Sequence record: OQ411014.1
Strand: one strand, 5' to 3'
Length of the DNA stretch: 64,000 nucleotides
Source of the DNA: Escherichia phage EJP2
Part shown: positions 9,373 to 64,000 of the stretch, piece by piece
Position numbering within the stretch: position 1 is the first letter of the stretch
How the letters are laid out: each line of letters opens with the position of its first letter
Notes under the pieces: model-generated
What the model saw: only the letters and a program-made list of their open reading frames with translations
What the model was told of the DNA's origin: nothing
Database searches by the model: none
Translations under genes and position numbers: made by a program

Positions 9373-9858
9373 ATGAATAATGATTTGTCGTATATAGAAA
9401 CCTTAAACTTAGCCAATGACTTACTCTTAATTCTTAGGGCATTTGATGCGGGTAAGCTGGATGGTTATAAGGATATCACTAAGCAGCTTATAGGTGATAC
9501 TACAACGGAATACTTTCTTGCAGGTGAACGTGTATGTTACGTCACTAATAAAGCATCCAATATATGGTCAAACGTAAGTCTCACTTCTGGTCGGATTCGA
9601 TACAATCAATTATATCCTCACTACCCTATAAAGAACAACGGCGAGATTACTAAGTGCGTCCCTGGGGATAAAATCTTTGAAGTGTCCGAAGAACAATTTT
9701 TCTATAACACACTCACACTCGATACTAGCTTACCAACGAGTGCACTTATCTTTGGAGTACTGTCTGGACACAAGTTTGAACACAACGCTGTGGGATTATA
9801 CTTCGACCTAGAGTATGTGGATATACTGGTTCTGTATGCTAAAGAGGTGTTGGCATGA
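9373..9858 (+). CDS. FQ-motif paralog family protein
   Basis: Motif VSEEQFFYNTL; RBS GGAG. Confidence 0.7.
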   Translation: MNNDLSYIETLNLANDLLLILRAFDAGKLDGYKDITKQLIGDTTTEYFLAGERVCYVTNKASNIWSNVSLTSGRIRYNQLYPHYPIKNNGEITKCVPGDKIFEVSEEQFFYNTLTLDTSLPTSALIFGVLSGHKFEHNAVGLYFDLEYVDILVLYAKEVLA

Positions 9859-10358
9859 GACTACGAGTAGAAGATTACTCTTATGATGAAGTTCTAAAGT
9901 TAGCCCACGATATACGTTTGATGATGAGTGCCTTTGATACTGGTCGGCTAGATGGTTATAAAGATATTCGCAGAGAAGACGTTGATGAAAAGACTGTGGA
10001 GTACTATATTGGGAACGATAGGGTCGCACATCTAAACAGATATGAATCAACTCTATGGAGTATGCTTATGCAGAAACATGGAACTATCAAACATAACTCT
10101 TTCGCTGCACACACTATGTTTGTTATCGACGCTGTGGTTCATGAACGTAAGCTAGATGATCCCATGTTTACTGTTTCGGAAGAACAATTCTTTTACAACA
10201 CTTTACAATATCCCAACAACACTGTTCCCGCTAGAGGTATTATTTTTGGTGTACTGAATGAACATACGTTTGATTACAATGAAATTACATTGAAATTCAA
10301 ATTACACCTAGATAAGATGTTAGCTTACTCACAAGAGGTTATGCATAATGCAATGTAA
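9855..10358 (+). CDS. FQ-motif paralog family protein
   Basis: Motif TVSEEQFFYNTL; ATGA overlap with upstream stop. Confidence 0.7.
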   Translation: MRLRVEDYSYDEVLKLAHDIRLMMSAFDTGRLDGYKDIRREDVDEKTVEYYIGNDRVAHLNRYESTLWSMLMQKHGTIKHNSFAAHTMFVIDAVVHERKLDDPMFTVSEEQFFYNTLQYPNNTVPARGIIFGVLNEHTFDYNEITLKFKLHLDKMLAYSQEVMHNAM

Positions 10359-10680
10359 CGTTATTATAAACACGTATTGTGAATCATATACACATCTTGG
10401 TGTTATGCGTTTTTCTGAACCAATGACGAATTATCTTATTCGCTATAACCACCGCAAAAATGAATGGGAACTTCGATACTATAATCCAAAAACATTGGAT
10501 GTGGAACAGATTGATGATACTATTGCTGTACTGTTGGACATGACTGAAGAAGAACTGTTCCAACATTCGTGCATTACTGATTTCGATGTCTACATGGTTC
10601 ACGCTGGTATGCAAGAGTTGAAACATAACACTCCCACAAGCTATAATTCCGTAATAACTAAGAAAACATTGGAGTACTAA
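10348..10680 (+). CDS. FQ-motif paralog family protein (short, divergent)
   Basis: Motif TEEELFQHS; 11-nt overlap ATGCAATGTAA. Confidence 0.55.
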   Translation: MQCNVIINTYCESYTHLGVMRFSEPMTNYLIRYNHRKNEWELRYYNPKTLDVEQIDDTIAVLLDMTEEELFQHSCITDFDVYMVHAGMQELKHNTPTSYNSVITKKTLEY

Positions 10681-11180
10681 TGAACACATTTGAAGAAGAT
10701 TTACAATTTGCTAACAAGGTGTTACGAATCCGAAATGCTATGATTACTGGTGAATTAAAAACTCTTCCAGGAGTGCATGAGCAGACCAATCCATTTCTTA
10801 ATGAACTGGATTTTTTATTCTTTGGAAATGTTGATTTAAGATCAGCACCGCTTGGATGTTTGACTTTTGAAAAAGGCGTTTCACGTTCTATAATTTCTCA
10901 AAGACATATATCATATAACACCAACGATGATAAGATTGCAGTTTTCAATGATGACCTTGAGAAATACGTTGACGTTGATATTGTTGATTACGATGAAAGC
11001 CTTTACTTTCAACACAGCCTGTTGTATACTCCTTGTGACTTACGTTACTTGGTTACTGCTTCTGTACTGAAGGCAAATGAAATTCCAGATAGACCAAACA
11101 TCCATCGATTCAAGTTTCAGTTGGTGCACATTCCAACAATTCATAAACTCTTGAGGTATAGAGACTATGGCATCATTTGA
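10680..11180 (+). CDS. FQ-motif paralog family protein
   Basis: Motif DESLYFQHSLLY; TAATG overlap. Confidence 0.65.
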   Translation: MNTFEEDLQFANKVLRIRNAMITGELKTLPGVHEQTNPFLNELDFLFFGNVDLRSAPLGCLTFEKGVSRSIISQRHISYNTNDDKIAVFNDDLEKYVDVDIVDYDESLYFQHSLLYTPCDLRYLVTASVLKANEIPDRPNIHRFKFQLVHIPTIHKLLRYRDYGII

Positions 11181-11646
11181 AGAAGATTACGCAGAAGCAA
11201 AAGATATCTGTACTGTTATGAAAGCCTTAGACACCAATCTGTTTGACAACCATAAAGAGATTATGACATTTCATAATGAATTCGAAACGATATATCAATG
11301 TTGGAATACAAGGTTCGCAGCAGTAAGTAAACATACTATTGGATATAAAAATAGCATTGACATTACAGGTAAACTGATTGACTATAGACCACATTCAGAT
11401 TCGTTTCAATATTTCAATTATGAAGATATGAAAGGGTATCTACTAAAAAAACACGACGCTGTATTCACCCCGACTGAAGAACAATATTTTCAAAATTCTA
11501 TTCTGTACGATCCAATCAATGTGAGAAGGTTTCTCATTTACGGAATACTAAATCAAGAAACTTTTGAGAACGAATTTATTCACTTGGACTACAACGTACT
11601 GAATCGTCTTGTACATCTTGCTAACGAGGCTAGAAATGCAACGTAA
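11167..11646 (+). CDS. FQ-motif paralog family protein
   Basis: Motif TEEQYFQNSILYD. Confidence 0.7.
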   Translation: MASFEEDYAEAKDICTVMKALDTNLFDNHKEIMTFHNEFETIYQCWNTRFAAVSKHTIGYKNSIDITGKLIDYRPHSDSFQYFNYEDMKGYLLKKHDAVFTPTEEQYFQNSILYDPINVRRFLIYGILNQETFENEFIHLDYNVLNRLVHLANEARNAT

Positions 11647-12223
11647 TGAATACACTGAATATACTGAATATACCGAAGTAGATGATGCTATTGATGTACC
11701 AGAGTACTGTTATAGTGATGATTTAAAGTACTGCTATGATATACTCAAGATAAAACACAACATGGAAATCCAGAGTCTACTCAAATTAGATGCATTTGAA
11801 CTATCAAGAATACAACAAAAGTCTATACAGTACGTTATGAAAACAGCCTTCTATGAAGAGTCAGGTCATAAGATCGGTATTGGCTCAGTACATAAGAATC
11901 TAAGAGTAGAAATGAGTTCACATCTAAGTATAACTTACTGTGTATTCGATAGTAGAAGTACAGTCTTCTCAGTACGTGACTATAAAGGACGTTATCCTAT
12001 ATCAGATACAGTACTATCAGAAGAACAGTACTTTCAACTTAGTCTTATTCATGATCCTTATCTTCTAAGAGCAATGTTACTTTATTCTGTACTTAAAGCT
12101 AATTCTAATCTAGAATCATCATGTGAGTACTCTCAAATCAATTTAGCTTATAATAGTTCAGTACTGAAATATATTGATACCCTAGATACCCTAGATACTC
12201 TTGGGGCAGAAGAAACATTATAA
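11636..12223 (+). CDS. FQ-motif paralog family protein
   Basis: Motif SEEQYFQLSLIHD; ATG 11636 (11-nt overlap) preferred over listed 11609. Confidence 0.6.
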   Translation: MQRNEYTEYTEYTEVDDAIDVPEYCYSDDLKYCYDILKIKHNMEIQSLLKLDAFELSRIQQKSIQYVMKTAFYEESGHKIGIGSVHKNLRVEMSSHLSITYCVFDSRSTVFSVRDYKGRYPISDTVLSEEQYFQLSLIHDPYLLRAMLLYSVLKANSNLESSCEYSQINLAYNSSVLKYIDTLDTLDTLGAEETL

Positions 12224-12247
12224 TAACATTTATAACAATCATATAAC

Positions 12248-12814
12248 ATGGTGAGAAGTATGGTCATATCTACAGTAGATGCAAACAGATACAAGTTGGA
12301 GTCACTATTATTCGATGAAGTGAGTTACTCAAAGCACAAACGATTTTGTACTGCCATGTGTACAGTACTGAAGGTTATTGCTACAGGAGAGATAGAGAAG
12401 TACAAGGGTATTACTAAGACTAGGCATTTAGGAATGGGGTGTACATACTACTATAACGATTTTAACTTCTGTAGTGTTGATATGTTAACACCAGATGAAG
12501 AGGATTATTCTGTTGTGATGTTAGGTTCATGTAGGGTAGTACTGTTCAATGATTACAAGGATTTAATATCTGTAGATAACGATTATAAAGAGATTATCAT
12601 TCCTAGTACATCTAATTTACTGATACCTACAGAAGAGCAGTACTTCCAGAATTCATTACTCTATGACAGAGCGTATCATCTGTGTAAATTCTTATTATAT
12701 GGATCTATCTTGCAATTGAACTTACAGTACTGTAGTATAGACTTCAGATACAACCAAGTGTTTGAGCTTGAGGAACTAATACTCAAAGGTGATTATAGTG
12801 AACAATATCAATGA
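12248..12814 (+). CDS. FQ-motif paralog family protein
   Basis: Motif TEEQYFQNSLLYD. Confidence 0.7.
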   Translation: MVRSMVISTVDANRYKLESLLFDEVSYSKHKRFCTAMCTVLKVIATGEIEKYKGITKTRHLGMGCTYYYNDFNFCSVDMLTPDEEDYSVVMLGSCRVVLFNDYKDLISVDNDYKEIIIPSTSNLLIPTEEQYFQNSLLYDRAYHLCKFLLYGSILQLNLQYCSIDFRYNQVFELEELILKGDYSEQYQ

Positions 12815-13349
12815 TAATGAATCATATACTGAAGCTACACAATTAGTACAAGATGTGTTATTAGTAGTACAGTATCTTATGAATTCAGAGTTCAAGGATA
12901 GTGCATTGAAACACACTATCAATGAAAGGAGTTTCTCATCAAGAATGACATCATTTGTATTTGATGTGAATAGAGGATTGGGTCGTACTGTTTACGAGAA
13001 GACTGTTGCTACGTTAAGGTCAGCAGTAGGGGGGACCAATGAGTTGAGGATTACTGCTAACGCTATTCAGTACTGTACAAGTTCTAATACTGTATGTGTA
13101 TATAAAGATGAAGATTCAAGATATCAAAAGTACAGTCCTATTGATTTTGATGATTATTCAGAAGAGAGATATTTTCAGACCTTATTGATGTACGATGAAG
13201 TTTATGCTAAGAACATGCTTGTAGCTTCTGCGATACAGAAGTACATTCCAGAGATCATGCGTTCACGTAATTATAAGGAGTTAACACTTACTGTGTTCCT
13301 TGATGATTTGCTTGAATTAGCTAATATTATAAAGGAAACACAACAATGA
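12789..13349 (+). CDS. FQ-motif paralog family protein
   Basis: Motif SEERYFQTLLMYD; GTG start, exact start uncertain. Confidence 0.55.
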   Translation: MIIVNNINDNESYTEATQLVQDVLLVVQYLMNSEFKDSALKHTINERSFSSRMTSFVFDVNRGLGRTVYEKTVATLRSAVGGTNELRITANAIQYCTSSNTVCVYKDEDSRYQKYSPIDFDDYSEERYFQTLLMYDEVYAKNMLVASAIQKYIPEIMRSRNYKELTLTVFLDDLLELANIIKETQQ

Positions 13350-13936
13350 CGTATCGCTCATTAGCAGCTAAAGCCGAGCATGAATTATATCTAATGCAAA
13401 AGATGAAGAATCTCTTATACAAGTACGAAAACAACGAAGACATTTCTTCTTATCATTCAGTACAGCTTAGTAAGCATTTTAGTATTTTATATTTCAAGGA
13501 CGATGTTGGTATTTTGTCATTGTGTCACCTTCCTAGTGGTTCATTTAATACGGACACAACAACGCTTATACAAGTTTATTCACATTACAGTGATATAGAA
13601 AATATTAGCTCACCGAGAATCCTTGAGTCCTATTACAATCAATCATCGAGTAATATGGTCAGGAATGTGTATAATGATTTCTTGCGGTTTAGACCTTCAA
13701 TTGATGATGATGAGTTACGGGTTATCATTCCTACAGTACAGCAAATGGATTTGAGTACAGAAGAGGGGGAGTTTCAGTTCATTACGGCGAACGACGATTC
13801 AGTACTTGACGTTATGAAATATTTGCAGTACATTACAAGGAATAAGTTCGATAGAACATTCACAACGAGCTTTAGTGATTTAGTACCTGAAGCGATTGCA
13901 GCATGGGATGAGTATTATGAGCGATTTCAGTCCTGA
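13346..13936 (+). CDS. FQ-motif paralog family protein
   Basis: Motif LSTEEGEFQF; ATGA overlap. Confidence 0.65.
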   Translation: MTYRSLAAKAEHELYLMQKMKNLLYKYENNEDISSYHSVQLSKHFSILYFKDDVGILSLCHLPSGSFNTDTTTLIQVYSHYSDIENISSPRILESYYNQSSSNMVRNVYNDFLRFRPSIDDDELRVIIPTVQQMDLSTEEGEFQFITANDDSVLDVMKYLQYITRNKFDRTFTTSFSDLVPEAIAAWDEYYERFQS

Positions 13937-13968
13937 GATTATTCAAGCAGCTAAGGATATTGAGAGTT

Positions 13969-14535
13969 ATGAGCGACGATTTAGTACAGAAGATTAGTTC
14001 CACAGTTCATGTATTGAAGTTTATGCATAATTTACAAACACAGCTAATACAGGACAATATCATTCCTGGTATTTTTTCATTAGAATTGAATAAAGAATTC
14101 AAGATAACATATGTAGATTATGATAAGTCATGTACATTGAAATTAATGTACGCACCATCAGTGCATTCTGCGTTTGCTAATCAGCAACTTGATGTTGTTG
14201 TGTTAACAATATCGAAATCAGACACATCCCCAGAGTCATCTTATTCACCGCAGCATTACCTCATTTCGAATAAAGATACACAAAGAATCAAGACCACAGC
14301 ATACAAGAATGCACAGGAATGGATACCAATTATTCCTAAGAGCGAGCTTGATTTGAGTACAGAAGAGGCAGATTTTCAGTACAGGATGATTTACGACGAT
14401 GTAGTACTTGATATGTTGAAATTCGTTCAGGCAGTTCAAGATGAAGTGTACGTAGATTTTTGTACATTTTTATCTCCAGTAATATACAGAGCACATGAGG
14501 CAATTGTACGATATGAAAATAAAATTAGAATTTGA
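13969..14535 (+). CDS. FQ-motif paralog family protein
   Basis: Motif LSTEEADFQY; ATG 13969 preferred over TTG 13960. Confidence 0.6.
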   Translation: MSDDLVQKISSTVHVLKFMHNLQTQLIQDNIIPGIFSLELNKEFKITYVDYDKSCTLKLMYAPSVHSAFANQQLDVVVLTISKSDTSPESSYSPQHYLISNKDTQRIKTTAYKNAQEWIPIIPKSELDLSTEEADFQYRMIYDDVVLDMLKFVQAVQDEVYVDFCTFLSPVIYRAHEAIVRYENKIRI

Positions 14536-27065: not shown

Positions 27066-27094
27066 TTGACAAGCATTGTATCTTCGGGTACAAT
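27066..27094 (+). promoter_or_regulatory. sigma70-like promoter with palindromic spacer (operator-like)
   Basis: -35 TTGACA, 17 nt, -10 TACAAT; perfect inverted repeat AAGCATTGTA..TACAATGCTT. Confidence 0.55.
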
Positions 27095-27117
27095 GCTTTT
27101 TTTATAGGAGAAATACT

Positions 27118-27756
27118 ATGATTTCGTATGAGTTTTTTGTAGGTGTTTCGAAGATTACTACTGAACTTCTAAATGTATATCGATACATGTTCGATAATAA
27201 TGATACGTTATTGTTTCAGGATTTTGACGCTGAGGATCATGATTCAGGATTTGTATTGGAGTTCTATCCACGACGCATATGCTTCTCGGATATTGTTGAA
27301 AGTTATAATACCTTACTGTCTATAACTCCATCAGAAAGTGCCCACGCGATATACAAAGGAACTATGTCCGATGAAAGGTCCATAATTACAGTTTCTGATG
27401 CAAGGTCGTGTGATTTTATACATTTATCCCACTACAGTGCTCTTACAAAAATCAATAAGAATACGCCTATTCCTTCTTTCAGTACTCCAAGTACAGCAGA
27501 AGAATTTGAGCAGACAGCGTTTCAGTTGATGATGTTATACGAAGAAGATGTAGTTGATTTATTTTTACTGAACAGTTATGTTGGGCCATTACTTGAAGGT
27601 ACTTCTATGAAATTCTTCAGTGCTACTAAGTTGTACTACCTTAGTCCAGTGGACTTGAATAACATGCTAGTGTTACTCCAAGAGCAATTCAAGAAAATAC
27701 TCCAATATAAAGAGGCGAAGAATGATTACTTACGACAAGTGCAAAGCTATCAGTGA
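27118..27756 (+). CDS. FQ-motif paralog, MISYEKC subfamily copy 1
   Basis: Motif EQTAFQLMMLYEED; ATG 27118 preferred over TTG 27076 which lies in the promoter. Confidence 0.65.
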   Translation: MISYEFFVGVSKITTELLNVYRYMFDNNDTLLFQDFDAEDHDSGFVLEFYPRRICFSDIVESYNTLLSITPSESAHAIYKGTMSDERSIITVSDARSCDFIHLSHYSALTKINKNTPIPSFSTPSTAEEFEQTAFQLMMLYEEDVVDLFLLNSYVGPLLEGTSMKFFSATKLYYLSPVDLNNMLVLLQEQFKKILQYKEAKNDYLRQVQSYQ

Positions 27757-28330
27757 ATTGTTTACAGTACTACTGGATGTGAAGAAGTACTTATTACAAA
27801 ATAACATATACATACTTCGGTCTAAGTATGATATTGAACATAAAGATTTCAGGATTGAATTCTTTTCATCTGGAAACTGTGAACTATTTCGAACATACCC
27901 AGTGTATACTAGACTTTGTACTATTGGAATGTGCACATCACTGCGGAGTGTTTTTAAAGAACCCAAAGAAAAAGAAGGGTATTTGTGTACATTTTCCGAT
28001 CATAGTGTGTTTATGCACAAAGATGAATTCGTTACAAGAACAGGTTATGATAATGTTTTTCAACCTTTATGGGTAAATGATTGCAAACACAATCAAGATG
28101 AAGTAGAGAGTGCTTTGTTCCAGATCAGTACTGTGTACAATGAAGAAGATGCGGATTTAGTAATATTGTATAACTTCATTCGCAATGCATTAGAAGGTTC
28201 TCGTTTGCGTTTATCGTTTACAGATCTTTTACTTGAGTGTACGATTTGTGAGGTTCATGTGTTGACTGAACTAACTAAAAGTCGATTTCAGAAAATCCAA
28301 GAAGATTATCCAGTAGGTGAATGTAAATGA
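27722..28330 (+). CDS. FQ-motif paralog, MISYEKC subfamily copy 2
   Basis: N-terminus MITYDKCKAIS; motif ESALFQISTVYNEED. Confidence 0.65.
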   Translation: MITYDKCKAISELFTVLLDVKKYLLQNNIYILRSKYDIEHKDFRIEFFSSGNCELFRTYPVYTRLCTIGMCTSLRSVFKEPKEKEGYLCTFSDHSVFMHKDEFVTRTGYDNVFQPLWVNDCKHNQDEVESALFQISTVYNEEDADLVILYNFIRNALEGSRLRLSFTDLLLECTICEVHVLTELTKSRFQKIQEDYPVGECK

Positions 28331-28926
28331 TTTCATATGAAAAATGTCAAGCTATTTCGAATTTAGTAGTTGAACTTGTAGCTACTAAGGATGCAATAAT
28401 GAATCGTAAATTTACAACTTCTCGTTACAGAGCATCTTTTGAGATTTTCAATGATGATATTAGAATTGAATTTTCTATAGCGGGGAATTGCGATATATAT
28501 CAAACATCCCAATCAACAGATCGATTGTGTTCAATAATGTCAGATCAATGCATGTTTAGTTTGTTCGAGAGAGAGTCCGTGTTAGTAGGTTCGAATACTT
28601 ATCAATTTTATGATCATAAAAATGCAGTGCATGACTATTACTGTAAATCATTCTCACTCAATCACATCAAACATCCAATATGGATAGGTGAGTGCACTGC
28701 TGATAATTATGATAGTGTTGTTTTTCAATTGAGTACTGTGTATAATGAAGATATGGCTGGTCTTATGTTATTGAATAATTTCATTCGACCAATTCTTGAG
28801 GGTACTGGTTTTAAATTTACCGCACATAGTTTGTTATTGCAGTTACCTGTTGAAACCATCGAGTGTGCTACTTTGTTATTACAGAAACAACATCAAAAAA
28901 TCTCCAGACAAGGTGAATGTAAATGA
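28327..28926 (+). CDS. FQ-motif paralog, MISYEKC subfamily copy 3
   Basis: N-terminus MISYEKCQAIS; motif DSVVFQLSTVYNED; ATGA overlap. Confidence 0.7.
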   Translation: MISYEKCQAISNLVVELVATKDAIMNRKFTTSRYRASFEIFNDDIRIEFSIAGNCDIYQTSQSTDRLCSIMSDQCMFSLFERESVLVGSNTYQFYDHKNAVHDYYCKSFSLNHIKHPIWIGECTADNYDSVVFQLSTVYNEDMAGLMLLNNFIRPILEGTGFKFTAHSLLLQLPVETIECATLLLQKQHQKISRQGECK

Positions 28927-29528
28927 TTTCATATGAGAAATGTTTAGTACTGAAAGAGTTAGCAACTACACTAATTGAGACATACCATTACATAGCCAAT
29001 AACCCACGTATCTCAGTTGGAATACTGGACGGCGAATACGACACTATGCGTAATGGATACATGGCGGTATTTTATCCGAAAGGAAACTGTTATATATATG
29101 ACAGTACTGATATATATCAGAAACCACTAATGAGTGTTCGTAAATGGCAATTGGGTATGTACACTCTATGTAAGACATTACATGACGGTTACATTACGTG
29201 TAATTTCTCAGATAATTTACTCGCTGAAGTTGATAATTATTTTACAAACACTCACGGTGCAAAAGTTACACACAATTTACCATCGATTTTGAAGTACTGT
29301 AACGCTAGTGAAGACGCTTTCAATAGTACTGTTTTTCAATTGAGTACTCTTTACGACGATGAAGACATTGAAACACTTTTGATATACTCTTTCTTGCGAG
29401 ACATGTTAGAAGGTTCTGGTATGTCCATCACAATATCATCTACAACACTAGAAGATTCAGTAGAGAAAATTATTGATGGCCTTGAATTGTTGAAATGTCA
29501 ATTAGAAAAAATGAAAAAATCAATTTGA
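28923..29528 (+). CDS. FQ-motif paralog, MISYEKC subfamily copy 4
   Basis: N-terminus MISYEKCLVLK; motif NSTVFQLSTLYDDED. Confidence 0.7.
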   Translation: MISYEKCLVLKELATTLIETYHYIANNPRISVGILDGEYDTMRNGYMAVFYPKGNCYIYDSTDIYQKPLMSVRKWQLGMYTLCKTLHDGYITCNFSDNLLAEVDNYFTNTHGAKVTHNLPSILKYCNASEDAFNSTVFQLSTLYDDEDIETLLIYSFLRDMLEGSGMSITISSTTLEDSVEKIIDGLELLKCQLEKMKKSI

Positions 29529-40222: not shown

Positions 40223-40788
40223 ATGCCGCAGAGTTTGTTAGAGCACTTGTTGGTTTAGCTAAAGTGAAAACTTATAGAGGAAATATCACTAAATCAAATT
40301 CGCATTTTGTTCCACGTAATGGTCGTGAACATCTATTCGTTGATTCATTACTCATCAAGGGTATCGATGCATATGAAGAAATATACATTTCTATAGATAT
40401 GTGTGATGGATTCTTGAATTCCATTGCAGTTCATACAAGAAATAGATATACTCATTTCTCTATGTACAGAAAAACGGCATACACAGAGTATGATAAGTAC
40501 GCAATGGAAGAAACCTCCCCAGGGCGTTTCCTTATGCTTTTTCACAATGAAATTACCGAGCGTGATTTAATCATGAATCACAAGGGTGAATTTATTGTGC
40601 ACATGGACAATGAAAGTGAAGTGTTCAGTACTTTATTAGTACATAACTTCGATATAGAAAAGTACAGAGAAATTCATGAAACCTATAAGTGCATTGATGA
40701 ACTTAAAACTGACCTCTCATTCAGTACATATGATACTAATTGTGGTCTGAATTTCGCAGCACTATATCAAATTATATGGAAGGCATAA
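40219..40788 (+). CDS. FQ-motif paralog, VHDFD subfamily
   Basis: Motif ESEVFSTLLVHNFD; ATGA overlap. Confidence 0.65.
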   Translation: MNAAEFVRALVGLAKVKTYRGNITKSNSHFVPRNGREHLFVDSLLIKGIDAYEEIYISIDMCDGFLNSIAVHTRNRYTHFSMYRKTAYTEYDKYAMEETSPGRFLMLFHNEITERDLIMNHKGEFIVHMDNESEVFSTLLVHNFDIEKYREIHETYKCIDELKTDLSFSTYDTNCGLNFAALYQIIWKA

Positions 40789-41309
40789 TGACTGCACTAA
40801 ATGATTTCATGACTCTCAGTACTGAAATAGTATCTTCTACAAAGGGAGAAATCACAATCCCCCGTGATGATGTATATATTATACTAACACCAGGAATAGC
40901 AGAGTCCATAAAAGTATACGAAAATAATGATTCTTTACAAGTACTGTACATGCCACAAGATTATCTTTTTGTAAATTCTGATTTTACTTTACATCAATTT
41001 CCTACGTATAGTAATTTTCAACAACGTTTCCCAAGTGATAAAACAAAAGAAATAAAATACGTACAGTACGATAATAGTTTTAAAAGTCGTACTCATTTTA
41101 TCGCTTTAGAAACTGAAGAAGATATATTCAATGCTATGATAGTACATTCATTTGATATAAACGCAGCACTAGAATTGATGAGTGTATTGACTGAAGTACC
41201 GGAAGATGTAACAGGTATTATTACTATAAGAACTAAGTACAATGAAGAATTGTTACTAAAGTGCAACAGTATGATGCGAGATTATATTAGTAATAAGGAA
41301 AACACATGA
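40788..41309 (+). CDS. FQ-motif paralog, VHDFD subfamily
   Basis: Motif EEDIFNAMIVHSFD; ATG 40788 (TAATG overlap) preferred over TTG 40740. Confidence 0.6.
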   Translation: MTALNDFMTLSTEIVSSTKGEITIPRDDVYIILTPGIAESIKVYENNDSLQVLYMPQDYLFVNSDFTLHQFPTYSNFQQRFPSDKTKEIKYVQYDNSFKSRTHFIALETEEDIFNAMIVHSFDINAALELMSVLTEVPEDVTGIITIRTKYNEELLLKCNSMMRDYISNKENT

Positions 41310-41836
41310 CAGTACTGAATGATTTTCTTAGAGATAGTAAGTACATTATTGATAATATTGCTGAAGAAATATCTATACCATCAATGGATGAGTTGATGAT
41401 GATATCAATGGACCCTGATGGTGGGTTGGTAAAAGTATATTACGATTTTGAACTGCACGTAATGTTCATGAAAAATCATTATGAACACGCTTCTGATATG
41501 TTGACACTTTATGATTTTGGGACGCATAAAAATTACCAACAACGTTTACCAGCAAACAAATCAAAGGATATGAAACTAAGTGTTTACAATTCTGCTGGTG
41601 TTACTATTCCGACTAAGATTTCTCTTGGTTCTGAAGAGGGAATCTTTTCTGCGGAATTAGTACATGATTCCAGTACTGAAGAAGCACTTGAAGTTATGCA
41701 AGTAATTTCTGAAGTACCTGACAGTACCAAAGGAATACTTACTATAAGAAATAAGTACAACGAACGATTACTTATAAAATGTAATGTGTTATTAGAACAA
41801 TATATACATGGAGTACTGAATGCAAATATGGTATAA
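41306..41836 (+). CDS. FQ-motif paralog, VHDFD subfamily
   Basis: Motif EEGIFSAELVHDS; ATGA overlap. Confidence 0.65.
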   Translation: MTVLNDFLRDSKYIIDNIAEEISIPSMDELMMISMDPDGGLVKVYYDFELHVMFMKNHYEHASDMLTLYDFGTHKNYQQRLPANKSKDMKLSVYNSAGVTIPTKISLGSEEGIFSAELVHDSSTEEALEVMQVISEVPDSTKGILTIRNKYNERLLIKCNVLLEQYIHGVLNANMV

Positions 41837-53965: not shown

Positions 53966-55381
53966 ATGAGCGTACTTTCTATTTTGACTGAACTAAAAGA
54001 CAATGCATCTATTCTGGTCAAAAAAGACATTCTCAATAAAAACAAGGACGATGCAGTACTGCAACGTGTTCTCAAACTAGCTTTAGACCCAGGAATTGTA
54101 AGTGGTTATAAGAAGCTACCGAATCCCTTCGTTAGTGAAACTAAGTACACACTCAACGAAGCACTAAATCAGCTTGATGATATCTACACTCGTAAGTACA
54201 CTGGTCATGCTGGACGTGACCACATTGCACAAATCCTAGGTTCAGTCACTGAAGATGACCGTGAAGTTATCCGTCGAGTACTGACTAAGGACTTAGAGTG
54301 TGGTGCTAGTGATAAGATTGTGAACGATGTATTTGGTAAAGGTTTTGTCAAAGATGAACCGTATATGCGTTGTTCATTGATTGATCATAAAACTGCAAAA
54401 AACATCAACTTCGATGGTTATGGTTATGCTGTCTCTGAAGTAAAAATGGACGGCACTTACCTGAACCACGTAGTCATCAACAATGCACTAACATCCTCAT
54501 CCAGAAATGGTAAACTATATGATTTTCTTGGTTGTCGTGACTTAGAAATGAGTGGGGTTGCTGGAATCATTCAGAAAAATGATCCACGTTTCAGTTCTGG
54601 TGTAGTTTTCATGGGAGAAGGTTTAGTACTAGACACTGATGGCACTATTCTTCCACGAACAACTGGTAATGGGATCATCCAAAAAGCGGGTAAAGATTCC
54701 ATAACATCGTTCGAAGCTATGCGGGTAGTCTTTGTATTATGGGACGTTGTTCCATATGATGCATTCTGTAATGGTTTTTGGGATGTGAAACGCAAAGAGC
54801 GTCGTGAAATACTTGAAAGTGCAATCAACGAATTCGATAGTGAATTTGTACGTATGGTTGAGTACCGTAAAGTAAAAAATCTAAAAGAAGCATTTGATTA
54901 TAACACTGAACTCATGAACAAGGGTGAAGAAGGTTCAGTACTGAAATGTGAAGATGGTGTTTGGAAATCACACACTTCTCCTAAGCAATTGAAAATGAAA
55001 CTGAAAATGCAAATTGATTTACGCATTGTAGGATTCAATGAAGGGGATAAGAAACGTAAAGGCTGTTTGGGTTCTTTACAACTTGAAAGTGATTGTGGTA
55101 CATTGAAAGTGAATGTAGGTACTGGTATCAAAGAGAAAGATGCCGAATGGACATTCAAAAGTATCTGGGAAAAACGTTTTGAACTATTGAATAAGATTGT
55201 CACTGTTGAGGCAAATGAAATCGTAGTTGATAAACGTACTGGAGAACCATCACTATTTTTGCCAGTGTTTGTTGAATTTAGATTTGACAAGGACACATGT
55301 GACACGTATACTCGTATCTTAGAAATTCGAGAAAGTGCTGTTGAGGTATTTGCAAACAGTATTGTTAGTTCTTTATTGTAA
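53966..55381 (+). CDS. ATP-dependent DNA ligase (T4 gp30-like)
   Basis: Adenylation motif KxDG in SEVKMDGTY; LTKDLECGAS and C-terminal LKVNVGTGIKEKD / LFLPVFVEFRFDKD recalled as matching T4 DNA ligase; 471 aa. Confidence 0.9.
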   Translation: MSVLSILTELKDNASILVKKDILNKNKDDAVLQRVLKLALDPGIVSGYKKLPNPFVSETKYTLNEALNQLDDIYTRKYTGHAGRDHIAQILGSVTEDDREVIRRVLTKDLECGASDKIVNDVFGKGFVKDEPYMRCSLIDHKTAKNINFDGYGYAVSEVKMDGTYLNHVVINNALTSSSRNGKLYDFLGCRDLEMSGVAGIIQKNDPRFSSGVVFMGEGLVLDTDGTILPRTTGNGIIQKAGKDSITSFEAMRVVFVLWDVVPYDAFCNGFWDVKRKERREILESAINEFDSEFVRMVEYRKVKNLKEAFDYNTELMNKGEEGSVLKCEDGVWKSHTSPKQLKMKLKMQIDLRIVGFNEGDKKRKGCLGSLQLESDCGTLKVNVGTGIKEKDAEWTFKSIWEKRFELLNKIVTVEANEIVVDKRTGEPSLFLPVFVEFRFDKDTCDTYTRILEIRESAVEVFANSIVSSLL

Positions 55382-60661: not shown

Positions 60662-61081
60662 TTATTCGTCATCTTTGTTGACAAAATCCAAATCTAGTAC
60701 ACTAGGTGGTGGTACATTACAAAAATATAAATCCCACGGTTTGTAGATTGATTCACCTGAACTTAACTTAATTTTGTGCGTTTGAAATGAAGTAACAAAT
60801 GCTTGATCTATTCGCATAAAAAATGTATTCTTACCAAGCAATGTAGACAGTACTGAATCAGATGCACTTGTGTCCAAGTACTGACCATCTTTATCAGTAT
60901 ATGTCAATCTGATAAAGCTGAAAATATTACCATCAGTGTCAACTAAATCAAAGGTGTTATCAGAGCGTTGTCTGAAAATATTGATGTTGTTTTTGATTAC
61001 ACCATTAATGTTTGCAACTGGGACACAGAATCCACCAATACTAAAAGGTAGTTCACCTCTACCTGCAATCACTTTTGCCAT
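60662..61081 (-). CDS. hypothetical protein, paralog of N-terminal domain of 61920-62576 (139 aa)
   Basis: Minus-strand ORF with RBS AAGGAT; shared N-terminal pattern RG-LPF-I-G...QRS..FDL. Confidence 0.6.
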   Translation of the reverse strand: MAKVIAGRGELPFSIGGFCVPVANINGVIKNNINIFRQRSDNTFDLVDTDGNIFSFIRLTYTDKDGQYLDTSASDSVLSTLLGKNTFFMRIDQAFVTSFQTHKIKLSSGESIYKPWDLYFCNVPPPSVLDLDFVNKDDE

Positions 61082-61238
61082 ACTATATCCTTTTATAAAA
61101 AACTGGTCATAAAATGACCTACATAATATTTATGTTACTTGTTCATTTTTTGTACAGCTAATGCTAAATAAATTTATATTGACACTGATAAGCAAACATG
61201 CTAGAGTAATCATCTTACACATTCATTGTAGAGGGTAT

Positions 61239-61853
61239 ATGAAAAAAATTCCATTAGAATTGTTACAGATATTTCTTATCTGGTTGCTATGTACTGTTCC
61301 CAGTTCAGCAGAAAGTTTGTCCAGTACTATCTTTAGAGATAAAGAGAATATTGTTCATTTTGGTGCTCCAGTTTCATTCGAGGCATATAGCAAATTACTG
61401 AAAATGTATAAGATAAAACCATTTTCTGAAATTAGACTCACCAGTAATGGTGGAGAATATGATGCTGGTATGAAGATTGCTCACTTAGTTTACACCAATG
61501 ACATATCAGTCTTTGTTCCAAAGTACTGTGCAAGTGCATGTACATTTATATTTTTTGGAGCTAGGGTTGAGCACCGTGACATTGCACCAACGGCAATGTT
61601 GGGATTACATAATGTGTCGTTTGGTATGAACAACTCAACGGGTGAAGACGCGAATAACTCGTCGATAACAGTCAAGGAGGCACTTGATTTTGCACAAGAA
61701 GCAGTTGTAAGATCAGGAATGATGATTTCATTCTATTCTGCGAATGGGATACCAAGTGATGTACTACTTCAAGTATCACAAACATATGGTCAAGGTATCA
61801 TAAATGTGCAACGGGCTGACTTAGTTCGTTGGGGTGCAATACAAGCGAAATAA
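61239..61853 (+). CDS. putative secreted ClpP/S49-like peptidase-fold protein
   Basis: Signal-peptide-like N-terminus MKKIPLELLQIFLIWLLCTVPSSAES; TSNGGEYDAGMKIA and CASACTF loosely resemble ClpP motifs; ATG 61239 with RBS GAGGGT. Confidence 0.45.
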   Translation: MKKIPLELLQIFLIWLLCTVPSSAESLSSTIFRDKENIVHFGAPVSFEAYSKLLKMYKIKPFSEIRLTSNGGEYDAGMKIAHLVYTNDISVFVPKYCASACTFIFFGARVEHRDIAPTAMLGLHNVSFGMNNSTGEDANNSSITVKEALDFAQEAVVRSGMMISFYSANGIPSDVLLQVSQTYGQGIINVQRADLVRWGAIQAK

Positions 61854-61919: not shown

Positions 61920-62576
61920 TTACGCCCCCAAAATAGTAACATTACATTGTGCAGTAAAATTACCATCAACACTAGTTGCTGTTATAATAGCATTCCCAGC
62001 CAACAAACCAGTGACCAGACCAGAATCAGAAACTGAAGCTACTGTTGGTTCGGAAGATTCCCACAGTACTGATTGGTTTGTAGCATCCTCTGGTGTGAAA
62101 ATTGGCGTGAGTTGGTCAGTTTCACCTGTCTGAATAGAAGATGTTACTTTATTCAATGCAAGACCAGTAACATACACTGAACGATCACGTTGACTTGCAT
62201 AAGAATTAAGATAAAATGATGAACCATCGCCTAGGATGATTTTATTTAAGAATAGTTTTATTGCAAAACCGACCAGTTCATCTTTTTCTGGATCATATAC
62301 CTTAATACAAAATTTACCAGGGTCAAGTTTAGCAGCAAGTTCTTCATCGGTATCACTTAGCAATAACGGTTGTTTGTTCTTATCCAAAGCTGTTATTTGA
62401 AGAAATTCATATAGTGAATCACCAGTTTTGGATTGCAAGTCAAACATGATAGTACTTCTCTGTTTTGATATATTAATAGTAGTTAGTTCTGTACCATCTT
62501 TCAATACGGCAGCGTTGACATTTATACCCGAAATATCGAACGGAAATTGGTCGCGGCGAGCAATTGGTTTACCCAT
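61920..62576 (-). CDS. hypothetical protein with C-terminal bacterial Ig-like (Big_2-like) domain (218 aa)
   Basis: Strong RBS AAGGAGG; C-terminal TGLALN...VLWESSEP..ATSVDGNF pattern typical of Ig-like group 2 domains. Confidence 0.65.
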   Translation of the reverse strand: MGKPIARRDQFPFDISGINVNAAVLKDGTELTTINISKQRSTIMFDLQSKTGDSLYEFLQITALDKNKQPLLLSDTDEELAAKLDPGKFCIKVYDPEKDELVGFAIKLFLNKIILGDGSSFYLNSYASQRDRSVYVTGLALNKVTSSIQTGETDQLTPIFTPEDATNQSVLWESSEPTVASVSDSGLVTGLLAGNAIITATSVDGNFTAQCNVTILGA

Positions 62577-62633: not shown

Positions 62634-62663
62634 TTGCACATTCCAAGATAATACTGATATAAT
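62634..62663 (+). promoter_or_regulatory. sigma70-like promoter
   Basis: -35 TTGCAC 62634-62639, 18 nt, -10 TATAAT 62658-62663. Confidence 0.45.
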
Positions 62664-62716
62664 AGACTCATCCAACGCGAAGTTGGTGTAAACAAACTAC
62701 TAAGAGGACTTAGACA

Positions 62717-63790
62717 ATGAAAAACGAAAACGTATATGTATACATCGGACGCTTCCAGCCAGCACATAAAGGCCACGAAGCAGTACTTGAAAATGCAATC
62801 AAAAAAGCTGACCGTGTTGTTATTCTAGTGGGTAGTGCTGAACAAGCTCGTTCCCCTAAGAACCCGTTCACCTTTGAAGAACGCCAAAAAGTACTGGACG
62901 GTATCACAACTCGTCTTGCACAAGATGAATGGGCGAAAGGTCGCCGTGTGATGATCGACATCCTACCTGTACATGACTTCGTATACAACAACCAGAAATG
63001 GCTCATGGAAGTTCAAGAACAAGTTCGTTCCTGCACTAAAAGTGAAAACATTACTCTAACTGGTTGTCGTAAACATGGCGATGATAGTACTTTCTATCTT
63101 GAGTTCTTCCCTCAGTGGAATCAAGATTTCATTACAGAAACTACACAAGAAGATGTTGGTATCAATGCCACTCAACTACGTAACCAATTCTTCAGTACTA
63201 AACAAGTACCTGAACAAAATGTACTTACTCCTGAAACTGTAGAGTTCCTTGAGAAGTTCAGCGTAGAAAAGAAAGATGTACTAGATTACCTAGTGAAAGA
63301 ACATGCTTTTACTACAAAATATAAAGCAGACATGAAGAAACAACTACCATTTGACACAATCCCATTCCTGACTGGTGATAGTCTGATTGTCTGTGCAGGT
63401 CATGTTCTTGTAGGTATTCGTCGCTCTGAACCAGGCAAAGGTCAGTACTGTCTACCTGGTGGGTTCTTCGATGCATGGAAAGATAAAGATCAAGTTGATA
63501 CTGCTTTACGTGAACTCAAAGAAGAAACCAAAATTGATGTACCAATGAATAAACTACGCGGTTCTATTGAACGTGTAGAAGAGTTTGGTGACTTTGACCG
63601 TGACCCACGCTGGCGTGTAATCACTAAGTGCATCTACATCAAACTTGACGGTACTAAACTACCTAAAGTAAAAGGCTCAGATGATCTCAAAGGTTGCTTC
63701 TGGATGCCTATGACTGAAATTGCTAAAAATCGTGCTAACTTCTTTGTTGATCACGTTTCCATCATTGACACGTTCTTAGGAATCCTGTAA
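62717..63790 (+). CDS. natV: bifunctional NMN adenylyltransferase / Nudix hydrolase (NadM-Nudix type)
   Basis: N-terminal HxGH motif in IGRFQPAHKGHEAV; C-terminal Nudix-box-like GGFFDAW..ALRELKEETKI; 357 aa; symbol by analogy with vibriophage KVP40 NatV. Confidence 0.8.
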   Translation: MKNENVYVYIGRFQPAHKGHEAVLENAIKKADRVVILVGSAEQARSPKNPFTFEERQKVLDGITTRLAQDEWAKGRRVMIDILPVHDFVYNNQKWLMEVQEQVRSCTKSENITLTGCRKHGDDSTFYLEFFPQWNQDFITETTQEDVGINATQLRNQFFSTKQVPEQNVLTPETVEFLEKFSVEKKDVLDYLVKEHAFTTKYKADMKKQLPFDTIPFLTGDSLIVCAGHVLVGIRRSEPGKGQYCLPGGFFDAWKDKDQVDTALRELKEETKIDVPMNKLRGSIERVEEFGDFDRDPRWRVITKCIYIKLDGTKLPKVKGSDDLKGCFWMPMTEIAKNRANFFVDHVSIIDTFLGIL

Positions 63791-63791
63791 T

Positions 63792-64000
63792 ATGAATGTA
63801 ATTTCTCTGACTCCAGGTTTGAAAGCAGACTTGGATGCAGTAAAGGAAAGTAAGTACAATAAGATAACTAGCTGTACTGAACTAATCTTGAGTACTGATG
63901 GTTATTCTGAATGTAATCAATTGTTCGTTGATGCACTTCAACACATTGATAAAAAACTGTATCTAACCGATTTTCTTTATCTTATTCAGAGAACGTGGAT
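63792..64000 (+). CDS. hypothetical protein, 3'-truncated by window end
   Basis: ATG 63792 immediately after upstream stop; open to end of window. Confidence 0.45.
   Translation, partial: MNVISLTPGLKADLDAVKESKYNKITSCTELILSTDGYSECNQLFVDALQHIDKKLYLTDFLYLIQRTW

Follow-up and report, generated by a model that had tools for sequence, protein, structure and literature searches.

A NadM-Nudix gene at the head of a probable NARP2 operon in the Rak2-like jumbo coliphage EJP2

Does the gene for a NadM-Nudix enzyme at the end of a stretch of Escherichia phage EJP2 belong to a pathway that rebuilds nicotinamide adenine dinucleotide (NAD+), and which of the genes that follow encodes its partner? The DNA analysed here, called the window throughout, comprises 64,000 nucleotides (nt) of EJP2 (OQ411014), a Rak2-like jumbo coliphage of 349,185 bp, and the region in question extends from position 62634 to 64000. 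The original prediction placed in this region an enzyme of NAD salvage that would act in counter-defence, and suspected its partner, nicotinamide phosphoribosyltransferase (Nampt), in an open reading frame (ORF) starting at 63792. We consider it probable that a three-gene NARP2 operon begins here, one that rebuilds NAD+ from nicotinamide. The pair of Nampt and NadM matches the published NARP2 system, and to this extent the prediction was sound; its gene assignment was off by one gene.

The NadM-Nudix gene and its operon

The features of the region are listed below, with the nicotinamide mononucleotide (NMN) adenylyltransferase domain abbreviated to its activity and protein positions given in amino acids (aa).

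62634..62663, + strand: sigma-70-type promoter with extended -10 (consensus scan and conservation)
62672..62686, + strand: leader hairpin 1, CCAAC-GCGAA-GTTGG (minimum-free-energy fold, RNAalifold)
62700..62713, + strand: leader hairpin 2, CTAAG-AGGA-CTTAG (pattern scan, conservation)
62717..63790, + strand: NadM-Nudix coding sequence, 357 aa (ORF listing, domain and family matches)
62717-63271, + strand: NMN adenylyltransferase domain, about aa 1-185 (domain matches)
62765..62776, + strand: HxGH nucleotidyltransferase motif H17-K-G-H20 (invariant in alignment, matched in 2QJO)
63329-63787, + strand: Nudix domain, about aa 205-357 (domain matches)
63458..63529, + strand: Nudix box, G248-G249 ... 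R265-E-L-K-E-E270-T271 (PDB and phage alignments)
63792..64000, + strand: 5' part (69 codons) of a 179-aa ORFan of the EJP02_122 type, truncated at position 64000 (matches the complete ORF in contig L010)
about 64380-65852, extrapolated: Nampt, 490 aa, third gene (six near-identical contigs)
about 65860-65879, extrapolated: terminator-like hairpin after the Nampt stop (near-identical contigs)

As judged from its matches, the 357-aa protein is a two-domain fusion of a NadM-type NMN adenylyltransferase with a Nudix domain, its main catalytic motifs intact. Pfam recognises two domains, CTP_transf_like (aa 8-73, E 5e-12) and NUDIX (aa 228-341, E 5.5e-13); the NCBIfam model PRK05379 ('bifunctional nicotinamide-nucleotide adenylyltransferase/Nudix hydrolase') covers the protein end to end (E 3.8e-79), and PHROG 395 matches it with E 7.4e-74. 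Among solved structures, residues 11-338 of the Synechocystis enzyme slr0787 (2QJO) align with aa 8-354 (E 7.7e-54), and residues 9-343 of the Francisella enzyme (2QJT/2R5W) align with aa 6-352 (E 7.9e-40). Because E-values reach 1e-79, the assignment lies beyond chance. The Pfam, NCBIfam, PHROG and PDB matches thus agree with the predicted combination of an NMN adenylyltransferase N-terminus bearing an HxGH motif and a Nudix-like C-terminus. Note however that the start coordinate then given, 62634, marks the promoter's -35 element; the gene itself starts at 62717. An exact-sequence look-up found the protein identical to WEM33182.1, 'nicotinamide-nucleotide adenylyltransferase [Escherichia phage EJP2]'.

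The catalytic motifs were followed in an alignment (A6) of seven phage homologues, one of them from a KVP40-like Schizotequatrovirus phage with 35% identity to the window protein. The HxGH motif lies within GRFQPAHKGH at aa 11-20, which aligns with GRFQPFHLGH of 2QJO, and residues G11, R12, F13, H17, G19 and H20 are invariant. The second nucleotidyltransferase motif, of the ISxTxxR type, is INATQLR at aa 149-155, with R155 invariant and with the counterparts SSTAIR in 2QJO and NATEFR in 2QJT. In the Nudix domain, the core R265-E-L-K-E-E270 (RELxEET) is likewise invariant.

The DNA beyond the window end was seen in six metagenome contigs that encode an identical 357-aa protein and match the final 1.4-11 kb of the window at 99.1-99.7% identity, position 64000 corresponding to locus position 11284. 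In these contigs a 48-nt spacer, which has a Shine-Dalgarno sequence of its own, separates the ORF starting at 63792 from a downstream 490-aa protein starting MQNVNFILNADSYKHSH. This protein carries NAMPT_N and NAPRTase (Pfam), matches PHROG 448 with E 1.7e-129, and matches bacterial and human Nampt structures in the PDB with E-values of 4e-72 to 1e-65. A hairpin with a T-run, terminator-like, lies directly 3' of its stop codon. NadM-Nudix, the ORFan and Nampt make up an operon of three genes, which opens with a conserved promoter and a structured leader and is closed by a terminator; its intergenic gaps are 1 nt and 48 nt. The expectation that NadM-Nudix would be paired with a Nampt is borne out by the 490-aa enzyme in the same transcription unit; a look past position 64000, as had been proposed, reveals it as the third gene and not as the ORF at 63792.

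The promoter consists of a -35 element, TTGCAC, at 62634, an 18-nt spacer ending in TG, and TATAAT; TGATATAAT ends at 62663. It scores 10/12 in the consensus scan, plus the TG extension, and TGnTATAAT together with a TTG..AC -35 element is kept in all ten aligned phages. Its resemblance to host sigma-70 promoters suggests early expression of the operon. Hairpin 1 begins a few bases past the expected transcript start and is predicted across 12 phage leaders, with compensatory two-sided changes in five of its six pairs (RNAalifold). Hairpin 2, set 3 nt ahead of the NadM-Nudix ATG, has the Shine-Dalgarno sequence in its loop; its pattern has a single match in the whole 64-kb window, and it is near-invariant among relatives, the arms being swapped in RaK2 (CTTAG..CTAAG) with pairing retained. 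An Rfam search of the NadM-Nudix leader gave no family match, and the idea of an NAD+ riboswitch was dropped for lack of a meaningful match there. The conserved two-hairpin leader could reveal how Rak2-like phages tune a pathway reported as metabolically costly.

The sequence TGnTATAAT is itself enriched window-wide, with 16 sites against 6.6 expected (e.g., 4899, 15867, 33866, 55883 and 62655), several of them intergenic and behind good TTGACA -35 boxes. Sites with such boxes are likely promoters for the host sigma-70 polymerase. The remaining extended -10 promoters of the window are without the two leader hairpins.

The arrangement is not peculiar to EJP2. The order NadM-Nudix, hypothetical protein of about 170-180 aa, and Nampt was recovered in 10 of the 10 further loci compared, those of Hallingskeid, CBB, GAP32, Kaldavass, Munch, fHe-Yen9-04, XbC2 and three divergent metagenome contigs. 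A megablast of the region against the phage collection, in which EJP2 was not included, returned only Erwinia phage Hallingskeid (87% over 23% of the query).

The middle gene

The ORF whose ATG lies at 63792, one base past the NadM-Nudix stop codon, is indeed cut by the window end, and 69 of its codons are visible. Its residues 32-40, ILSTDGYSE, had been read as a weak form of the Nampt N-terminal motif. The true Nampt N-terminus, ILNADSYKH, is alike at 4 of the 9 positions, a likeness that arises by chance and is the only point in favour of taking the fragment as the beginning of Nampt. A 179-aa protein in contig L010 and WEM33183.1 ('hypothetical protein EJP02_122') both begin with exactly the 69 aa that the window encodes. 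The ORF ends at 179 aa in EJP2 as well as in the contigs 99.1-99.7% identical to the window, with an extrapolated end at about 64331, and the separate 490-aa Nampt comes next. Neither the fragment nor the full protein has a match in Pfam (NAMPT_N and NAPRTase included), NCBIfam, PHROGs or PADLOC. BLASTP of the fragment against the Hallingskeid Nampt gave E 0.2, and that of the full protein against the Nampt of the same phage E 1.6, in both cases over unrelated segments. The homology search that had been called for consequently finds the ORF unrelated to Nampt. Being 179 aa long against the roughly 490 aa of the enzyme, with no domain match and with these E-values, it was rejected as the Nampt partner, a reading that is almost certainly wrong, and the motif claim finds no support in BLASTP or in domain matches. 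For annotation, the gene directly after NadM-Nudix must not be called Nampt.

The middle gene is co-transcribed with NadM-Nudix and Nampt and is a lineage-specific ORFan. BLASTP shows its protein to be homologous to a 175-aa protein of Hallingskeid (E 2e-14, 26% identity) and to Munch_135 (E 7e-13). A word-index search with the protein found 2 clusters and an exhaustive HMMER search of 1.84 billion representatives only 8 relatives, while a profile search reached 20 clusters, all of 169-179 aa and without Pfam domains. The GAP32 type of the protein matches PHROG 25832 (function unknown) and nothing else. A profile-profile match connects the middle protein with the GAP32_113 type over the C-terminal 82 columns (probability 63%, E 7e-5), and a collinear alignment also ties the two. 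Divergence is extreme: identity is about 26-27% in the pairs that BLASTP can align (Hallingskeid and Munch), and global identity is at most 27% everywhere and falls to 2%, compared with 62-86% for NadM-Nudix and 76-79% for Nampt. One arginine is the sole invariant polar residue of the family.

The AlphaFold2 model of the window-type protein is of low confidence (pLDDT 54). Foldseek found nothing below E 0.4 for it in the PDB; in BFVD only two proteins were matched at E up to 0.001, each uncharacterised and of similar length, one being GAP32_113 (E 4e-5, TM 0.5). The predicted fold has a weak likeness to ITPase/Ham1/Maf nucleotide-binding proteins, among them KomB, the dITP sensor that is partnered with a SIR2 NADase in Kongming defence. 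At the sequence level no ITPase/Ham1/Maf link was found for the middle protein. The modelled likeness is a lead and not family membership, and is suggestive of a nucleotide- or protein-binding role.

Is the ORFan of about 175 aa a functional third component of the NARP2 module or a passenger? The position of the gene is kept in all 11 Rak2-like jumbo phage loci compared, and the 1-base spacing after the NadM-Nudix stop codon suggests translational coupling of the window-type gene. The protein could be a nucleotide or signal binder, or a decoy or inhibitor directed against host NADase effectors, and if it did block NADases, the operon would both stop the destruction of NAD+ and rebuild it. In RaK2, however, the middle slot holds a 341-aa zinc-finger gene (DUF4379/CapR) instead of the ORFan, and the middle gene is therefore probably dispensable for the two-step NAD+ chemistry. 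A functional third component seems to us quite unlikely. Nevertheless, a fast-evolving, position-locked ORFan inside the operon merits follow-up.

The zinc-finger gene between NadM-Nudix and Nampt of RaK2 is of the same sort as the CapR genes that vary among contigs L006-L011. These contigs share more than 99% identity with the window and vary in whether DUF723, CapR or HNH genes are present, the variable sites lying just after Nampt (e.g., L006:13185-14105 and L011:3273-3872) and after the DNA ligase (L006:1642-2718). Such genes, taken to be of the homing-endonuclease type, have the look of mobile insertions whose presence differs within a single phage species.

Role of the module and its surroundings

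The pathway that the two enzymes would carry out can be outlined from solved and characterised homologues. Nampt would condense nicotinamide and phosphoribosyl pyrophosphate (PRPP) to NMN, the NadM domain would adenylate NMN with ATP to give NAD+, and the Nudix domain most likely hydrolyses ADP-ribose (ADPR) to AMP and ribose-5-phosphate. This last step would clear the second product of the NADase, and the host may remake PRPP from the ribose-5-phosphate. Nicotinamide and ADPR are the two products that NADase effectors release from NAD+, and the module could therefore consume both and rebuild NAD+. With NAD+ kept available during infection, the phage would replicate despite Thoeris, DSR, SIR2-HerA and similar systems, a benefit that we infer from the experiments with phage KVP40. 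There the Nampt and Nmnat pair, named NARP2, was reported to abolish type I Thoeris and DSR2 defence and to raise NAD+ during infection. Furthermore, 94% of phages with a KVP40-type Nampt also encode Nmnat, the table of the same paper enters the Nampt of RaK2 as Nmnat-associated, and a published review puts the pathway forward as a means of countering NADase effectors.

Counter-defence and NAD-related genes also lie downstream of Nampt, about 3.9-6.0 kb past the window end (L010:15134-17238). They encode Acb1 (E 1.8e-17), SIR2 (E 1.1e-19), a Nudt16-like Nudix protein (E 2.6e-17) and cREC_REC (E 6.1e-26), the last two being fused in contigs L012-L014. Acb1 is an anti-CBASS phosphodiesterase family. 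These genes and those of NARP2 resemble a counter-defence and NAD/ADPR island, with which their functions fit.

An alternative is that the operon is a general auxiliary metabolic module, which supplies NAD+ for replication and for NAD consumers of the phage, such as the downstream SIR2, whatever the immunity of the host. The SIR2 and the other NAD- or ADPR-related genes nearby are in keeping with this, as are the papers on jumbo phages that call NAD+ metabolism a typical jumbo trait and file the genes under nucleotide and cofactor metabolism, and as is the rise in NAD+ brought about by NARP2 even in cells without a defence system. Against it stand the abolition of Thoeris and DSR2 defence by the same two KVP40 enzymes and the presence in the neighbourhood of Acb1, an enzyme family dedicated to countering CBASS. 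We judge a purely metabolic module to be rather unlikely, although the metabolic and counter-defence roles are mutually compatible. A further alternative concerns the Nudix domain, which could do something other than recycle ADPR: cleave ADPR-derived signals (the gcADPR of Thoeris), trim NAD(H), or act as an NrtR-like, non-catalytic ADPR sensor that regulates the NMN adenylyltransferase domain. A published review states that the Nudix domain of NadM regulates NAD+ levels through NAD+ cleavage. There is also a weak NCBIfam match to the ADPR-responsive repressor NtrR (aa 216-350, E 1e-11), and the first half of the Nudix box is off consensus, with a 2-residue insertion and a Lys at the glutamate of Gx5E. 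The metal-binding core RELxEE, however, is invariant, Pfam finds no DNA-binding domain in NadM-Nudix, and the Nudix domains of 2QJO and 2QJT (entry names 'Bifunctional NMN adenylyltransferase/Nudix hydrolase' and 'Nicotinamide-nucleotide adenylyltransferase') match the window domain from one end to the other. Published biochemistry describes the enzymes of these two entries as catalytically active ADPR pyrophosphatases. Such other roles of the Nudix domain are very unlikely in our estimation.

The reading as a NARP2 operon directed at host defence thus remains the one we prefer, and several points weigh against it. The departure of the first half of the Nudix box from the consensus is one of them, and activity as an ADPR pyrophosphatase is therefore not assured. 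With respect to the full consensus Gx5Ex7REUxEExGU, the final Gly is also replaced by Lys in the window protein, and the non-canonical first half is itself conserved among the Rak2-like clade in alignment A6. The best NCBIfam model, NF003786, scores 266.4 bits, below its equivalog cut-off of 397; judged by its sequence, the window NadM-Nudix belongs to a divergent phage clade of the family and is no equivalog by the NCBI threshold. Nampt lies wholly past the window end and was seen only in the near-identical contigs. Identity to the KVP40-type NatV, judged via KVP40-like relatives, is only about 32-35%, and the activities and phenotype ascribed to the Rak2-like module are drawn from homology throughout. 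Finally, since NARP2 raises NAD+ without a defence system, a metabolic role is inseparable from counter-defence.

Other features of the window were noted in passing. The gene at 61920-62576 (minus strand), upstream of the operon, encodes a Big_2 Ig-like domain, and the annotation given to it in relatives is major tail or Ig-domain protein. Its N-terminus is visibly similar to that of the minus-strand gene at 60662-61081, and the pair, which breaks an otherwise + strand region, flanks a + strand gene at 61161-61853 (probable start 61239) with a weak ClpP-like match. Through much of the window, ORFs of similar size follow one another on the + strand in a long series. Tandem paralogous + strand ORFs of about 160-225 aa occur at 9373-12814, 27076-29528, 13346-14535 and 40740-41836, and an all-against-all BLASTP resolved groups of 5, 4, 2 and 2. 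Identity to three of the contigs is about 89% in the segment 52681-55177, around a 408-aa ORF and the DNA ligase gene (53966-55381), as against 99.4-99.7% elsewhere, and the ligase has 482 aa in those three contigs compared with 471 aa in the window. The drop in identity and the difference in ligase length suggest a recombination mosaic.

Relation to known systems

The closest counterparts of the operon are those of other Rak2-like phages (GAP32_112-114, CBB_113-115, Munch_134-136 and Hallingskeid CDS0567-0565, with EJP02_121-123 in EJP2 itself), in which promoter, leader hairpins and gene order are as in the window. They also share neighbours, a dCMP deaminase and an Ig-domain tail protein upstream and Acb1, SIR2 and Nudix downstream; with orthologues as similar as stated above, nothing essential differs. 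The genome paper of CBB (2017) already listed CBB_113 and CBB_115 as NAD+ synthesis genes, and the genome paper of EJP2 mentions neither NAD nor salvage.

The bacterial NadM-Nudix enzymes (2QJO and the Francisella tularensis NadM, 2QJT/2R5W) have two domains that are collinear over the full length with the window protein and share with it GRFQPxHxGH, ISxTxxR and RELxEET. Unlike them, the window protein is phage-encoded, falls under the NCBIfam equivalog cut-offs and has the insertion in its Nudix box.

The NARP2 of KVP40, composed of the Nampt NadV and the NMNAT/Nudix protein NatV, comprises the same two enzymes, with NMNAT and Nudix in one and NAMPT_N and NAPRTase in the other. In tblastn the window NadM-Nudix matches KVP40-like Schizotequatrovirus phages over its full length (31-32% identity, E about 1e-36), and the NatV-type proteins of these phages align over 98% of the window protein with catalytic motifs conserved. 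The 2-residue insertion in the Nudix box of the Rak2-like clade is a difference, KVP40-type proteins being without it. Gene arrangement is another: Vibrio phage 2.275.O and a KVP40-like phage have no Nampt-annotated gene 3-4 kb either side of NadM-Nudix (within 4 kb of the NMNAT/Nudix gene in the KVP40-like phage), whereas the window phage has both enzymes in one operon with the ORFan between them. Overall, the module is an ordinary instance of the already known and already annotated NARP2, with little that is new. EJP2, a jumbo coliphage that is a therapeutic candidate, accordingly carries NARP2, whose presence predicts resistance to NAD-depleting defences such as Thoeris, DSR and SIR2-HerA.

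NARP1 (Adps and Namat) and NARP3 (NadR and PnuC) have the same outcome, the rebuilding of NAD+ by the phage against NAD-depleting immunity, and unlike NARP2 they use no NadM-Nudix. NARP1 pyrophosphorylates ADPR and joins nicotinamide to it, while NARP3 imports nicotinamide riboside and converts it via NadR; for CBB, a PnuC and a second NMNAT have also been reported from other parts of the genome.

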